UHGV virus genome: UHGV-0378502
Length of the DNA stretch: 22,376 bases
Direction: 5' to 3' (one strand)
DNA from: a virus
Below the pieces are notes generated by a model. That model saw only the letters and a list, made by a program, of their open reading frames with translations. It was not told the DNA's origin and did not search any database. Below are positions 3,978 to 22,376 of this stretch, piece after piece (within the stretch, counting starts at the first letter, position 1; every line of letters starts with the position of its first letter). A program made the position numbers and the translations under genes.

Positions 3978-4400
3978 GTGGCAAAAGTTTTTACACAAGA
4001 AGAGCGGGAAAAAATTAAAGGACAGGTTCTTGAACTCGTACGCCAGAGTGGGCGCGAGACGTTACGACAACTGGAAGCTAAAACTGGGGCAACAAGATAT
4101 CTGATGAGCGTTCTGGCCAGAGAGCTGGTTGCCAGTGGCGATGTATACAATTCTGGCTACGGGTTATTCCCGTCTGAACAGGCTCGTAAAGACTGGCAAA
4201 ATGCCCGCAAAAAATTATCGAGGGCAAAGCTGAAGAAACCGGTTGTGGTTGATCCGGACCTTATCTGGTCGTTACCTGACGGAGAAATACGTCGCTACGA
4301 CAGTCGCCTAAACATAATCTGTCGCGAGTGCCGGAAGAGTGAAGCTATGCAGCGTGTACTGGCTTTCTATCAGGGTAATTTTCAGGAGGCGGTACTGTGA
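3978..4400 (+). CDS. Hypothetical protein (140 aa)
   Basis: GTG start at 3978 preceded by AGGAGGG (3967-3973); ORF follows the initiator gene; no recognisable family. Confidence 0.55.
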   Translation: MAKVFTQEEREKIKGQVLELVRQSGRETLRQLEAKTGATRYLMSVLARELVASGDVYNSGYGLFPSEQARKDWQNARKKLSRAKLKKPVVVDPDLIWSLPDGEIRRYDSRLNIICRECRKSEAMQRVLAFYQGNFQEAVL

Positions 4401-4457
4401 GTGAAATTAGCTATCAGGCTTCAATTACCGCTGGCATTCGCATCAAAGGAGAGGAGC

Positions 4458-4814
4458 ATGGAAATAAAACCAGAGGATGAGTTAAGCAATATCGTTTTAT
4501 TTCCGGTAAAAGAGGATGACCCTCGTAATCAGGTTAATTTTCTTTATGAGCCATCGGAAAGACCATATTGTCATCACGCCTCTGTCCGGGTTGACGAAAA
4601 AGAGCGTCAGGTCCGCTGTAAAATCTGCGGTGCAGTTGTGGAGCCATTTGACTGGATGCTCTCTGTGGCGAAAAGAGAAACCAGACTGGCAGATGATGTA
4701 AGGCTCTTGCGTCAGGAGGAGCGGGAAAGGCGAAAAAATATAGAAAAGCTAATTCAGATTGAGCGTAACGCGAAAGCGCGGATACGCAGGGCGACAAAAT
4801 CCAGAACTGAATAA
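4458..4814 (+). CDS. Hypothetical protein with Cys/His cluster (possible zinc ribbon), 118 aa
   Basis: ATG 4458 preceded by AAGGAGAGGAG; contains CHH ... CKIC spacing suggestive of a zinc-binding motif; basic coiled C-terminus. The track ORF begins at GTG 4401. Confidence 0.55.
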   Translation: MEIKPEDELSNIVLFPVKEDDPRNQVNFLYEPSERPYCHHASVRVDEKERQVRCKICGAVVEPFDWMLSVAKRETRLADDVRLLRQEERERRKNIEKLIQIERNAKARIRRATKSRTE

Positions 4815-4878
4815 TTAAATTTAGCTCTGTTAAAAATTTAATCCTTAACCGGAGGGATTTCTGCACCCTCAGAACATC

Positions 4879-4910
4879 AGGAGGCCGCCCGAAAGGGCGG
4901 TAGTTAAATG
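4879..4910 (+). promoter_or_regulatory. Hairpin-split ribosome binding site (SD - stem-loop - AUG)
   Basis: AGGAGG at 4879-4884, then a perfect 6-bp stem with GAAA tetraloop (CCGCCC gaaa GGGCGG, 4885-4900), then ATG at 4908. Linear SD-AUG spacing is 23 nt; folding the hairpin would bring it to about 7 nt. Confidence 0.35.
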
Positions 4911-5090
4911 CGAAAGTTTAAAATAATTATTGAAACGGGAATAGCCGGTGGAGATTTCGAGGATGAATTCGAAGTGGATGATGATGCGATGCCTGATGAA
5001 ATACATGACGAAGAAAAAGATATTTTCTTTAACTACTGCAATTACTCATATCACGAAATAAAAGACGAAGAGGAAGAACAAAATGGCTGA
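4908..5090 (+). CDS. Small acidic protein (60 aa)
   Basis: ATG 4908; highly acidic product (DFEDEFEVDDDAMPDEIHDEE...); stop overlaps the next ATG (ATGGCTGA). Confidence 0.45.
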   Translation: MRKFKIIIETGIAGGDFEDEFEVDDDAMPDEIHDEEKDIFFNYCNYSYHEIKDEEEEQNG

Positions 5091-5259
5091 TTTTGGTTCA
5101 ACTAAATACAACGTCAGTTTTGAAGAATGGCATGAACTGTTAATGGACTATGCAGAGTTACGTGGTGGCAGTGCTGCTGATGCTGAAGCATGGCGTGATG
5201 ATTATGAAGCAGGAAAAACTCCGGTCGAAGCATATTGTGATGAGTGGGGCGATGAATGA
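5083..5259 (+). CDS. Small hypothetical protein (58 aa), translationally coupled
   Basis: ATG 5083 overlapping the stop of the previous ORF; product MADFGSTKYNVSFEEWHELLMDYAELRGGSAADAEAWRDDYEAGKTPVEAYCDEWGDE. Falls below the 60-aa cut-off of the supplied track and was found by reading the sequence. Confidence 0.45.
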   Translation: MADFGSTKYNVSFEEWHELLMDYAELRGGSAADAEAWRDDYEAGKTPVEAYCDEWGDE

Positions 5260-5314
5260 GCGAGGTTAATTATCAGGAAGGGCATGAAACGGCGGGGCAA
5301 GCAAAAACAGTGGC

Positions 5315-5572
5315 ATGGCGATATCGCTACGTGAAAAAAAAGGCGTTACGGACTTTCAGGGGAAGTAGTGGTCTGGTGACTGGAAATATGTACCGAAAAA
5401 AGAGGATTGTAACGACAGGCCGAACTATGAAATTCAGGCCTTATTCACTGCCCCGCCAGTCCCGGTTACATCAGAAGAACTGGTTAAAGCTGTGCACTTT
5501 TATGAACAACTAAAACGCGAAAATCCACCAGCATCCGGAAACCTGATTACAGATTCCCAGATAAGGCAATGA
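5315..5572 (+). pseudogene. Interrupted ORF: protein-like reading frame broken by a single in-frame TAG (5366-5368); alternatively read via the overlapping frame-0 ORF 5256..5513
   Basis: Frame beginning at ATG 5315 reads MAISLREKKGVTDFQGK-[TAG]-WSGDWKYVPKKEDCNDRPNYEIQALFTAPPVPVTSEELVKAVHFYEQLKRENPPASGNLITDSQIRQ. The supplied track instead calls a very basic 85-aa ORF in another frame (5256..5513). Two A_AAA_AAG heptamers occur in the frame-0 ORF (5336-5342 and 5396-5402). Confidence 0.3.
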
Positions 5573-5742
5573 GCTACCTAGCGCAGAACGGGCTGATAAG
5601 TATGGGGAATGTTTTACGATGAATATTTAGACTAAAGAGTTTGTAACGCTATGTAAGTGATTTTTTCTGGTTTAGATATTTATATGTCCGGCCAAATTGA
5701 GGTGTGTTTAAATGTAATTGCACATTGATTGTAGGAGGAATA

Positions 5743-5922
5743 ATGAAAAACGCATTGCAGTTTTTGTTTGTTGCGTTTTGGTTGTTCGTATCATGTATGC
5801 CCATCATCTTCACAGCAAGGTATATGGAAAAAGTTGATGTTTTGATATTAATATTTGGATATATAAATGCCCTTTTTTTAGGGGTGTTCATGGCGGTCAT
5901 GTGCATTGAATACTGGCGGTAA
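5743..5922 (+). CDS. Small hydrophobic membrane protein (59 aa, two predicted TM segments)
   Basis: ATG 5743 preceded by AGGAGGA (5733-5739); product MKNALQFLFVAFWLFVSCMPIIFTARYMEKVDVLILIFGYINALFLGVFMAVMCIEYWR; very AT-rich surroundings (5580-5950). Confidence 0.5.
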   Translation: MKNALQFLFVAFWLFVSCMPIIFTARYMEKVDVLILIFGYINALFLGVFMAVMCIEYWR

Positions 5923-6180
5923 ATACAGCGAACGCCATTGGTTTAGTTGGATATTTACTGTGCCGGACAAAAACGGTTTGCGGGGAAATCTTAGTTAAGT
6001 AGAATGACTGCGGGTGCTTGAGGCTATCTGTCTCAGGCATGAACACCAAAAGGCAGATAGAGAAAAGCCCCAGTTAACATTACGCGTCCTGCAAGACGCT
6101 TAACATTAATCTGAGGCCATATCTATGCGACACATAGAGATTAGCCTCTTACGGACCGAAAGGTCAAGGAGAAGCAGGCT

Positions 6181-6336
6181 ATGAAGCAGCAAAAGGCGAT
6201 GTTAATCGCCCTGATCGTCATCTGTTTAACCGTCATAGTGACGGCACTGGTAACGAGGAAAGACCTCTGCGAGGTACGAATCCGAACCGGCCAGACGGAG
6301 GTCGCTGTCTTCACAGCTTACGAACCTGAGGAGTAA
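6181..6336 (+). CDS. hokD: Hok-family type I toxin (HokD/RelF-like, 51 aa)
   Basis: Product MKQQKAMLIALIVICLTVIVTALVTRKDLCEVRIRTGQTEVAVFTAYEPEE matches my recollection of HokD/RelF; long structured leader upstream and a GC hairpin plus T-run downstream, as expected for hok mRNAs. Confidence 0.85.
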   Translation: MKQQKAMLIALIVICLTVIVTALVTRKDLCEVRIRTGQTEVAVFTAYEPEE

Positions 6337-6406
6337 GAGACCTGGCGGGGGAGAAATCCCTCGCCACCTCTGATGTGTCAGGCATCCTCAACGCACCCGC
6401 ACTTAA

Positions 6407-10514: not shown

Positions 10515-10591
10515 CCGCCATTAGCTCATCGGCAGAGAGCGTCAGCTTTCGAAACTGGCTGTGTGGGGCTCGGGTCCCCGATGGCAATCCA
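10515..10591 (+). tRNA. tRNA-Arg(TCG)-like gene, possibly degenerate
   Basis: D-arm TAGCTCA ... GAGC and an anticodon loop TTTCGAA (anticodon TCG) are recognisable and a CCA is present at 10589-10591, but in my manual fold the first two acceptor pairs and one anticodon-stem pair are mismatched and the T-loop is atypical. Boundaries are approximate. Confidence 0.45.
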
Positions 10592-19728: not shown

Positions 19729-20754
19729 ATGTCGATGTACACAACCGCCCAGCTGCTGGCGGCAAATGAGAAGAAATTTAAGTTTGATCCGCTGTTTCTG
19801 CGTCTCTTTTTCCGTGAGAGCTATCCCTTCACCACGGAGAAAGTCTATCTCTCACAAATTCCGGGACTGGTAAACATGGCGCTGTACGTTTCGCCGATTG
19901 TTTCCGGTGAGGTTATCCGTTCCCGTGGCGGCTCCACCTCTGAATTTACGCCGGGATATGTCAAACCCAAGCATGAGGTGAATCCGCAGATGACCCTGCG
20001 TCGCCTGCCGGATGAAGATCCGCAGAATCTGGCGGACCCGGCTTACCGCCGCCGTCGCATCATCATGCAGAACATGCGAGACGAAGAGCTGGCCATTGCT
20101 CAGGTCGAAGAGATGCAGGCAGTTTCTGCTGTGCTTAAGGGCAAATACACCATGACCGGTGAAGCCTTCGATCCGGTTGAGGTGGATATGGGCCGCAGTG
20201 CGGCGAACAACATCACACAGTCCGGTGGTACGGAGTGGAGCAAGCGTGACAAGTCCACGTATGACCCGACCGACGATATCGAAGCCTATGCGCTGAACGC
20301 CAGCGGAGTGGTGAATATCATCGTGTTTGATCCGAAAGGCTGGGCGCTGTTCCGTTCCTTCAAAGCCGTCAAGGAGAAGCTGGATACCCGTCGCGGCTCT
20401 AATTCCGAGCTGGAGACAGCGGTAAAAGACCTGGGCGAAGCGGTGTCCTATAAGGGGATGTATGGCGATACGGCGATCGTCGTGTATTCCGGACAGTACG
20501 TGGAAAACGACGTCAAAAAGAACTTCCTGCCGGACAACACGATGGTGCTGGGGAACACTCAGGCACGCGGTCTGCGCACCTATGGCTGCATTCAGGATGC
20601 GGACGCACAGCGCGAAGGTATTAACGCCTCTGCCCGCTACCCGAAAAACTGGGTGACCACCGGCGATCCGGCGCGTGAGTTCACCATGATTCAGTCAGCA
20701 CCGCTGATGCTGCTGGCTGACCCTGATGCGTTCGTGTCCGTACAACTGGCGTAA
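19729..20754 (+). CDS. E: Major capsid protein E
   Basis: 341 aa from ATG 19729, MSMYTTAQLLAANEKKFKFDPLFLRLFFRESYPFTTEKVYLSQIPGLVNMALYVSPIVSGEVIRSRGG ..., near-identical to my recollection of lambda gpE. Confidence 0.95.
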   Translation: MSMYTTAQLLAANEKKFKFDPLFLRLFFRESYPFTTEKVYLSQIPGLVNMALYVSPIVSGEVIRSRGGSTSEFTPGYVKPKHEVNPQMTLRRLPDEDPQNLADPAYRRRRIIMQNMRDEELAIAQVEEMQAVSAVLKGKYTMTGEAFDPVEVDMGRSAANNITQSGGTEWSKRDKSTYDPTDDIEAYALNASGVVNIIVFDPKGWALFRSFKAVKEKLDTRRGSNSELETAVKDLGEAVSYKGMYGDTAIVVYSGQYVENDVKKNFLPDNTMVLGNTQARGLRTYGCIQDADAQREGINASARYPKNWVTTGDPAREFTMIQSAPLMLLADPDAFVSVQLA

Positions 20755-20795
20755 TCATGGCCCTTCGGGGCCATTTTCTCTCTGTGGAGGAGTCC

Positions 20796-21191
20796 ATGAC
20801 GAAAGATGAACTGATTGCCCGTCTTCAGGTGCTGGGTGAGCAACTGAACCGTGATGTCAGCCTGACGGGGACGAAAGAAGAACTGGTGCTCCGTGTGGCA
20901 GAGCTGGAAGAGGAGCTTGATGACACGGATGACGCTGCCGGTCAGGACACATCTGTCAGCCCGGAAAATGCGCTGACCGGACATGAAAATGAGGTTGTAT
21001 CAGCGCAGCCGGATACCGTGACTGATACGGCTGATCTGGTCACGGTTGTGGCACTGGTGACGCTGCATACTGATGCACTTCACGCCACGCGGGATGAGGC
21101 TGTGGCATTTGTGCTGCCGGGAACGGCGTTCCGTGTCTCTGCCGGTGTGTCAGCTGAAATGACAGAGCGCGGCCTGGCCAGAATGCAATAA
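20796..21191 (+). CDS. FI: Head assembly/packaging accessory protein FI
   Basis: 131 aa from ATG 20796 (GGAGGAG RBS), MTKDELIARLQVLGEQLNRDVSLTGTKEEL ..., matching lambda gpFI with a few substitutions. Confidence 0.9.
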   Translation: MTKDELIARLQVLGEQLNRDVSLTGTKEELVLRVAELEEELDDTDDAAGQDTSVSPENALTGHENEVVSAQPDTVTDTADLVTVVALVTLHTDALHATRDEAVAFVLPGTAFRVSAGVSAEMTERGLARMQ

Positions 21192-21202
21192 CGGGAGGCG
21201 CT

Positions 21203-21556
21203 GTGGCTGATTTCGATAACCTGTTCGATGCTGCCATTGCCCGCGCCGATGAAACGATACGCGGGTACATGGGAACGTCAGCCACCATGACATCCGGTGA
21301 GCAGTCCGGTGCTGTGATACGTGGTGTTTTTGATGACCCTGAAAATATCAGCTATGCCGGACAGAGCGTGCGCGTTGAAGGCTCCAGCCCGTCCCTGTTT
21401 GTCCGGACTGATGATGTGCGGCAGCTGCGGCGCGGCGACACGCTGACCATCGGTGAGGAAAACTTCTGGATAGACCGGATTTCGCCGGATGATGGCGGAA
21501 GCTGTCATCTCTGGCTTGGGCGGGGCGTACCGCCTGCCGTTAACCGTCGCCGCTGA
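21203..21556 (+). CDS. FII: Head-tail connector protein FII
   Basis: 117 aa, MADFDNLFDAAIARADETIRGYMGTSATMTSGEQSGAVIRGVFDDPENISYAGQSVRVEG ..., matching lambda gpFII; GTG start at 21203 with GGGAGG upstream. Confidence 0.9.
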   Translation: MADFDNLFDAAIARADETIRGYMGTSATMTSGEQSGAVIRGVFDDPENISYAGQSVRVEGSSPSLFVRTDDVRQLRRGDTLTIGEENFWIDRISPDDGGSCHLWLGRGVPPAVNRRR

Positions 21557-21567
21557 AAGGGGGATGT

Positions 21568-22146
21568 ATGGCCATAAAAGGTCTTGAGCAGGCCGTTGAA
21601 AACCTCAGCCGTATCAGCAGAACGGCGGTGCCCGGTGCCGCCGCAATGGCCATTAACCGCGTTGCTTCATCCGCGATATCGCAGTCGGCGTCACAGGTTG
21701 CCCGTGAGACAAAGGTACGCCGGAAACTGGTAAAGGAAAGGGCCAGGCTGAAAAGGGCCACGGTTAAAAATCCGCAGGCCAGAATCAAGGTTAACCGGGG
21801 GGATTTGCCCGTAATCAAGCTGGGTAACGCGCGGGTTGTCCTGTCCCGACGCAGGCGTCGTAAAAAGGGGCAGCGTTCATCCCTGAAAGGTGGCGGCAGC
21901 GTGCTTGTGGTGGGAAACCGTCGTATTCCCGGCGCGTTTATTCAGCAACTGAAAAATGGCCGGTGGCATGTCATGCAGCGTGTGGCCGGGAAAAACCGTT
22001 ACCCCATTGATGTGGTGAAAATCCCGATGGCGGTGCCGCTGACCACGGCGTTTAAACAGAATATTGAGCGGATACGGCGTGAACGTCTTCCGAAAGAGCT
22101 GGGCTATGCGCTGCAGCATCAACTGAGAATGGTAATAAAGCGATGA
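21568..22146 (+). CDS. Z: Tail completion protein Z
   Basis: 192 aa, MAIKGLEQAVENLSRISRTAVPGAAAMAINRVASSAISQSASQVARETKVRRKLVKERARLKRATVKNPQARIKVNRGDLPVIKLG ..., matching lambda gpZ. Confidence 0.9.
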   Translation: MAIKGLEQAVENLSRISRTAVPGAAAMAINRVASSAISQSASQVARETKVRRKLVKERARLKRATVKNPQARIKVNRGDLPVIKLGNARVVLSRRRRRKKGQRSSLKGGGSVLVVGNRRIPGAFIQQLKNGRWHVMQRVAGKNRYPIDVVKIPMAVPLTTAFKQNIERIRRERLPKELGYALQHQLRMVIKR

Positions 22147-22376
22147 AACATACTGAACTCCGTGCAGCCGTACTGGATGTACTGGAGAAGCATGACACCG
22201 GGGCGACGTTTTTTGATGGTCGCCCCGCTGTTTTTGATGAGGCGGATTTTCCGGCAGTTGCCGTTTATCTCACCGGCGCTGAATACACGGGCGAAGAGCT
22301 GGACAGCGATACCTGGCAGGCGGAGCTGCATATTGAAGTTTTCCTGCCTGCTCAGGTGCCGGATTCAGAGCTGGAT
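22143..22376 (+). CDS. U: Tail tube terminator protein U (5' part; continues past the window end)
   Basis: ATG 22143 overlapping the Z stop; MKHTELRAAVLDVLEKHDTGATFFDGRPAVFDEADFPAVAVYLTGAEYTGEELDSDTWQAELHIEVFLPAQVPDSELD resembles lambda gpU; truncated by the window. Confidence 0.9.
   Translation, partial: MKHTELRAAVLDVLEKHDTGATFFDGRPAVFDEADFPAVAVYLTGAEYTGEELDSDTWQAELHIEVFLPAQVPDSELD

Follow-up and report, generated by a model that had tools for sequence, protein, structure and literature searches.

The chain of small overlapping genes at positions 4908–5572 of a stretch of the UHGV virus genome UHGV-0378502 raises the question of whether its last member, whose most protein-like reading frame is interrupted, is expressed through recoding or is simply a broken gene. 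The original prediction, made on the same 22,376-nt stretch of DNA (hereafter the window, numbered from its first nucleotide), had left three explanations standing side by side: a recent nonsense mutation, suppression-dependent expression of an amber codon, and programmed −1 ribosomal frameshifting. Comparison with related loci makes it highly likely that positions 5256–5622 hold a decayed accessory gene, an ordinary pseudogene that has been hit several times and is not recoded, and the alignments described below do not support the recoding readings. That the interval 5256–5572 is a pseudogene was already known from the RefSeq annotation, in which PGAP lists it as ETEC_RS31135 with the note "frameshifted; internal stop".

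The window is 100% identical to nucleotides 1294386–1316761 of the E. coli ETEC H10407 chromosome (NC_017633.1) and covers the early-right and late regions of a lambdoid prophage. Its 5′ part comprises cro-like and ydaT-like genes, a gene for a 356-aa hypothetical protein (annotated as replication protein O at the same position in phage PhiR42_1), a DUF977 gene, and a gene for a 118-aa protein, after which comes the region considered here (4908–5622). Further 3′ lie sok/hokD, DUF968, rusA, DUF1133, a DNA methyltransferase gene, tRNAs, and the lysis, terminase, portal, and head genes, which places the interrupted gene 3′ of the replication-region genes and 5′ of sok/hokD. An IS66-family element (tnpA, tnpB, and an ISCro1-type transposase gene; 19843–22376) sits immediately 3′ of the head-decoration gene and occupies the place expected for the major capsid gene. 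Given the position of this element directly after the head-decoration gene, the H10407 lambdoid prophage is very probably defective.

The three small ORFs are joined by stop–start overlaps at exactly the coordinates originally predicted, and the first two are real genes on the evidence of Pfam and PHROG profile matches. ORF1 (4908–5090, + strand; PGAP CDS WP_001224659.1) is intact and encodes a 60-aa DUF7167 protein, which matched Pfam PF23768 over model positions 1–60 of 60 (46.3 bits vs. a gathering cut-off of 24.4) as well as phrog_1997 (E 2.6e-27), and which is conserved in three of the orthologous loci (L003, L004, and L006). ORF2 (5083–5259, + strand; PGAP CDS WP_000753060.1) is also intact and encodes a 58-aa acidic protein that matched phrog_519 (E 4.5e-23), with zero matches in a Pfam search. 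ORF1 and ORF2 overlap by 8 nt (ATGGCTGA), and ORF2 overlaps the ATG at 5256 by 4 nt (ATGA); this layout of three overlapping genes was found again in every orthologous locus examined (L003, L004, L006, L010, and L011). Since neither promoter-like sites (+ strand) nor terminator-like sites (both strands) turned up in a scan of positions 4300–6400, the tightly packed genes fit a single polycistronic early transcript, the normal arrangement in phages. ORF1, ORF2, and ORF3 are probably translationally coupled. Coupled small genes with ATGA and similar overlaps are found in phage early operons, and there is nothing unusual in their presence here.

Two further features of the upstream genes were noted. 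The ORF2 protein is very acidic and, with only positions 76–137 of the 143 in the phrog_519 profile being matched, corresponds to the C-terminal module of longer relatives; a partial module of this kind fits the module shuffling at this location, where Ead/Ea22-like and DUF551 proteins are encoded nearby in related phages. Ahead of ORF1, a perfect AGGAGG (4879–4884) lies 23 nt 5′ of the DUF7167 start codon (ATG at 4908), beyond normal Shine–Dalgarno spacing, and is followed at 4885–4900 by a hairpin with a 6-bp stem composed entirely of G+C and a GAAA loop (local fold z −2.2), which has no T-run and is thus not a terminator. The hairpin and the context of the ATG are invariant in six loci, no covariation being available, and in S. 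dysenteriae the upstream homology ends exactly at the hairpin. Hairpin-bridged ribosome-binding sites occur in T4 genes 38 and 25, and the AGGAGG and hairpin together (4879–4910) could represent such a site or a module-boundary element.

As for the third ORF, the first matter to settle is which frame carries the conserved protein. We constructed a repaired reading of 105 aa, which follows the ATG-5256 frame as far as an A-run and the 5315 frame thereafter with the TAG masked, and this reading matched phrog_660 continuously (aa 2–100 against profile positions 34–124 of 193, E 1e-26). The unrepaired 85-aa ORF that opens at ATG 5256 (the frame-0 ORF) matched the same profile over aa 2–31 only (E 0.006). 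A search of a large protein collection returned 317 homologues, nearly all from E. coli and Shigella, and those that are intact are single ORFs of 104, 119, or 171 aa with the consensus …AWRYRYV-KK-GVTDFQGK[Q/L/P/W]W[S/V/A]GDWKYVP…. Intact homologues of 104 aa (P0003) and 171 aa (P0017; 87 contigs) lie directly 3′ of the DUF7167 and 58-aa genes, and in L003 and L004 a hok gene is found 3′ of the intact orthologue. Judging from the repaired reading and from these single-ORF homologues, the conserved protein has its true N-terminus in codons 1–29 of the frame-0 ORF and its remainder in the 5315 frame, the point at which the frame switches being the A-run at 5334–5341 and not the second of the two slippery heptamers considered below. 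The frame at 5315–5572, singled out in the original prediction as the protein-like one, is indeed the one conserved beyond that run; the reverse pattern, with the frame-0 ORF conserved and the other frame not, was not what the homologues displayed, as conservation past the A-run lies in the 5315–5572 frame.

The phrog_660 family is mosaic, P0051 and P0087 having alternative N-terminal modules and P0012 a C-terminal DUF551 module. Pfam searches returned zero matches for the repaired ORF3 and for the intact P0017 and P0011 (171-aa and 119-aa forms), and an AlphaFold2 model of the 171-aa P0017, computed from a 29-sequence alignment, was of low confidence (mean pLDDT 53.6, pTM 0.40).

Measured against its intact relatives, the remnant of the phrog_660 gene (5256–5622, + strand; 171 aa when intact), delimited by the profile match and by protein and DNA alignments, is damaged along its length. 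In the DNA alignments, the first lesion is an A8 homopolymer (5334–5341, + strand) that is 2 nt longer than the A6 of intact loci, which read GTG-A6-GGC or GTG-A6-GAC (V-K-K-G/D), and window bases 5334–5335 are missing from L004. This 2-nt expansion equals a −1 frame change and shifts the frame after codon 29. Because intact orthologues have A6 where the window has A8, the first of the two A_AAA_AAG heptamers (5336–5342) is nothing other than the 3′ end of the A8 run and thus of the frameshift lesion itself.

The second lesion is the amber codon in the conserved frame (5366–5368, + strand; the next base is T), which had been correctly located as the single in-frame TAG within 5315–5572 and which corresponds to codon 38, directly after Lys37, in the repaired reading. 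Alignment with intact orthologues confirmed that the TAG replaces a sense codon, and a variable one at that: the orthologous codon is CTG in L003, CCG in L004, and TGG in the S. dysenteriae locus L006, it encodes Gln in P0005, P0010, and P0011, and CAG is also among the sense codons found at this position in homologues. TAG is one transition away from TGG, as it is from CAG, and the ancestral codon fits either.

The remaining lesions are two deletions, visible as gap runs in the DNA alignment with the 171-aa form, whose junctions fall at 5529–5537 (+ strand). Here, 90 nt are missing after 5529 and 61 nt after 5536, with junction positions that are ambiguous by 1–2 nt, and the 61-nt deletion produces the out-of-frame tail …GNLITDSQIRQ with which the frame now ends. 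A relic of the ancestral C-terminus (…KPDYRFPDKAMSYLAQNGLISMGNVLR and a stop codon) can be translated in a third frame at 5539–5622 (+ strand), extending past the present stop codon at 5570–5572; the corresponding C-terminus in P0017, P0033, and P0120 reads …PDCKLPEKAMDYLKRNxLISxEDVLR. Through the A-run expansion and the 61-nt deletion, three relic segments of the phrog_660 gene are left in three different frames. Intact single-ORF orthologues are thus present at the same position in other loci, and the interruptions in the window are derived.

The distribution of these lesions was surveyed by a census of exact matches to 90–93-nt synthetic queries, representing one haplotype, in 5,426 complete E. 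coli genomes. The combinations A6+TAG, A7+TAG, and A8+TAG gave 424, 75, and 353 exact matches, respectively, counts (the '≥99%' class) of which each may hold 17–27 partial alignments per search. At least one full-length exact match was found for A9+TAG and at most one exact match for A6+TGG, while A8+TGG had none in the E. coli census and was seen in S. dysenteriae only. The TAG on this haplotype therefore occurs in at least ~850 of these 5,426 genomes and is confined to this one near-identical haplotype. It is also present with A6 in phage PhiR42_1 and in E. coli ATCC 8739, where the Qin-type prophage locus, beside ydfW, contains the DUF7167 gene and the phrog_660 gene as pseudogenes, both of them, a sign that this module decays in other prophages too. 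Some differences in the A-run between assemblies could be sequencing error; A8 is common to hundreds of genomes.

Judged by these exact-allele counts, the amber codon is old and widespread on the haplotype, not recent, and its co-occurrence with A6, A7, A8, and A9 suggests that the amber mutation preceded the drift of the homopolymer. Of the recent nonsense mutation first proposed, the nonsense was right in kind, but its recency is at odds with a TAG carried by so many genomes, and the A8 expansion and the 90-nt and 61-nt deletions are present besides. The original prediction overlooked the A8 lesion, the true N-terminal 29 codons within the frame-0 ORF, and the 3′ deletions. Two of the variants retrieved (L011/P0001 and L010/P0054) have the A8+TAG allele together with one further 1-nt insertion, which reopens a long ORF past the TAG. 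The reopened frames of these independent variants could hint at residual selection on the C-terminal part; we have treated them as an ascertainment effect, given that a protein search finds frame-reopening variants only.

Programmed −1 frameshifting at the second heptamer (5396–5402, + strand), which would join the ATG-5256 frame to the conserved frame past the TAG, is very unlikely in light of these comparisons. Both A_AAA_AAG heptamers are where they were predicted to be (5336–5342 and 5396–5402) and stand in X_XXY_YYZ phase relative to ATG 5256, the first base of each being codon position 3, and this motif is among the most efficient −1 motifs in E. coli (PMC4066793). Were ribosomes to slip at the second one, the product would be open to the stop at 5572, a predicted 105-aa hybrid (MSEV…VKKKALRTFRGSSGLVTGNMYRKK joined to EDCNDRPNYEIQ…), and a natural variant (P0054/L010, on 10 contigs) encodes a similar hybrid through its 1-nt insertion. 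However, the second heptamer, which in the conserved frame reads CCG AAA AAA GAG (P-K-K-E), is not conserved, as the site is CCGACAAAAGAG, without the heptamer, in the diverged intact orthologues L003 and L004, and diverged orthologues are single ORFs with A6. Under the frameshift-site criteria of Sharma et al. (PMC4066793), stimulators were absent as well: when the 30 nt before each heptamer were scanned by regex, neither proved to have an SD-like motif 6–17 nt upstream, and downstream structure, evaluated by MFE folds of pseudoknot-free structures, was no better than in shuffles, with z scores of −0.14 (5343–5402), −0.24 (5403–5470), and −0.60 (5380–5480). The hybrid would also swap the nearly invariant GDWKYVP block for out-of-frame residues, and the two-frame layout occurs only in near-identical sequences that also bear the obvious A6-to-A8 lesion. 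AAAAAAG is mildly over-represented in the window, with 10 copies on both strands against 4.9 ± 2.3 expected, a number reached by 1 of 100 shuffles. We infer that both A_AAA_AAG heptamers came about incidentally, through Lys-Lys coding and homopolymer expansion, and are not recoding signals.

Low-level −1 slippage at 5396–5402, which would bypass both lesions, is a separate matter. As A_AAA_AAG is intrinsically shifty in E. coli, some slippage of this kind is biochemically expected, but at most in traces, since without stimulators the motif-to-background ratio is 2–10 over a background of ~0.05% (PMC4066793). There is only a slim chance that the TAG alleles (A6, A7, and A8) are alive at a low level in this manner, with unstimulated slippage at 5396–5402 trickling out the conserved C-terminal half; if true, the +1 insertions in P0001 and P0054 would reflect selection for that half.

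The known −1 sites of the dnaX, IS911, and IS3 type share with this locus the identical slippery heptamer, present here twice and in the right phase. Those sites are accompanied by an upstream SD and a downstream hairpin or pseudoknot, whereas here the regex scan found no SD-like element and the MFE folds no significant downstream structure. Unlike in dnaX and IS3-type systems, moreover, the motif and the two-frame layout are not conserved in diverged homologues, and the first heptamer arose by homopolymer expansion.

Suppression-dependent expression, in which the amber codon would be read through by a suppressor tRNA or by virtue of its context, is scarcely credible, even though the TAG is common on this haplotype (at least ~850 complete genomes) and the frame past it is open to 5572. 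Among diverged homologues the stop is not conserved, its place being taken by a variable sense codon (Q, L, P, or W), and the TAG is followed by T (UAG then U), a stop codon followed by T being a strong termination context in E. coli. No suppressor tRNA was found in the window, the tRNAs of the prophage having the anticodons CAT, TCG, and TCT. In the window, furthermore, the TAG frame is unreachable from ATG 5256 without an earlier frameshift.

Such an earlier frameshift could in principle occur at the A8 run, which would then be a functional slippage site (by A9 transcription or a −1 slip at 5336–5342) or a phase-variable switch. The run is polymorphic in length on the haplotype (A6, A7, A8, and A9), and the A8 allele of S. 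dysenteriae, which has TGG and an undeleted 3′ part, could allow a full-length rebuild in that species. A functional role of the run is nevertheless highly improbable for the window, where either slip meets the TAG eight codons on and the predicted product, whether from a −1 slip at the first heptamer or from an A9 transcript, is a 37-aa peptide ending at the TAG. In diverged intact orthologues the run is a plain A6. Phase variation was considered and rejected, because each of the four lengths that were counted goes with the TAG, and a change of length therefore cannot turn the full protein on or off. Runs at which slippage is efficient are A9/T9, longer than A8.

Transcriptional slippage on long A/T runs, or 'saviour indel' correction, is reviewed in PMC5009743, and such systems resemble this locus in that the A8 lies exactly at the frameshifting indel, which slippage by RNA polymerase or the ribosome might in principle correct in part. 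Unlike in those systems, correction would be futile here, since the TAG follows eight codons after the A8 and an A9 transcript still stops after 37 codons. In S. dysenteriae (L006/L007; CP026836.1 and CP026824.1; gene at 1501–1959), the A8 frameshift is found with TGG in place of TAG and with the 3′ part undeleted; in that species a predicted full-length protein of ~172 aa would be restored by −1 slippage on A_AAA_AAG or through an A9 transcript.

The 85-aa frame-0 ORF (5256–5513) might also be seen as a new functional protein born by overprinting, as it is the longest uninterrupted frame, has its ATG coupled to ORF2, and is common to about 350 genomes. Past residue 29, however, it has no homologue but the same allele, and its out-of-frame part is basic and of low complexity and ends at the first chance stop. 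The carriers are near-identical in sequence and so give no evidence of selection on the 85-aa frame, and we regard an origin by overprinting as extremely improbable.

Decay of a non-essential accessory gene of a defective lambdoid prophage thus remains the preferred account, and the course of events may be proposed as follows. The amber mutation would have arisen first, and replication slippage would then have let the A6 Lys-Lys run, freed of constraint, drift to other lengths. Through the ATGA overlap, translation from ATG 5256 would still be coupled to that of the two intact genes before it, and from this coupled start mainly an 85-aa product of 5256–5513 would be made, the last 56 residues of which would be out-of-frame nonsense. 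Any slip at the A8 would presumably give the 37-aa peptide instead.

This account places the locus with the pseudogenes of cryptic or defective lambdoid prophages in E. coli (Qin/Rac-type early-right regions), with which it shares the same gene company and the presence of several independent disabling lesions, and the neighbours of the pseudogene include dicB, ydfD, cro, ydaT, hokD, rusA, and the DUF968/DUF1133 genes. Intact orthologues elsewhere, the PGAP flag, and the TAG in the Qin-type locus of ATCC 8739 are further points of likeness, and we noted no substantive difference, the spread of the TAG and the A6–A9 run being the only notable features. The biological weight of the finding is small, as it adds one more decayed prophage accessory gene. 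It does carry a caution for scans based on sequence alone, in that an in-phase A_AAA_AAG at a frame junction may be left over from the expansion of a homopolymer and not be a recoding signal, a difference that a single alignment to intact orthologues brings out. The A6–A9 polymorphism on a shared nonsense background also illustrates how a coding homopolymer drifts after loss of constraint.

Several minor observations were made elsewhere in the window. The sok/hokD type I toxin–antitoxin locus (6012–6336; Rfam sok 106.7 bits, PGAP hokD) begins ~440 nt 3′ of the pseudogene, and in H10407 the spacer between them (5573–6010) lacks any annotated gene, but L003 and L010 each have a 59-aa ORF called at the corresponding place. 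A scan of the whole window at Rfam gathering thresholds returned sok and tRNAs only, with zero matches in 4800–5700. A third tRNA, Arg(tcg), was detected by ARAGORN at 10515–10591, between the tRNA with the CAT anticodon (Ile according to PGAP) and tRNA-Arg(tct); it is not in the PGAP annotation and falls below the Rfam tRNA gathering score. Clusters of tRNA genes of the ileZ-argN-argO type are seen in lambdoid and Stx phages, and we presume that the Arg(tcg) tRNA may be a degenerate gene of such a cluster.
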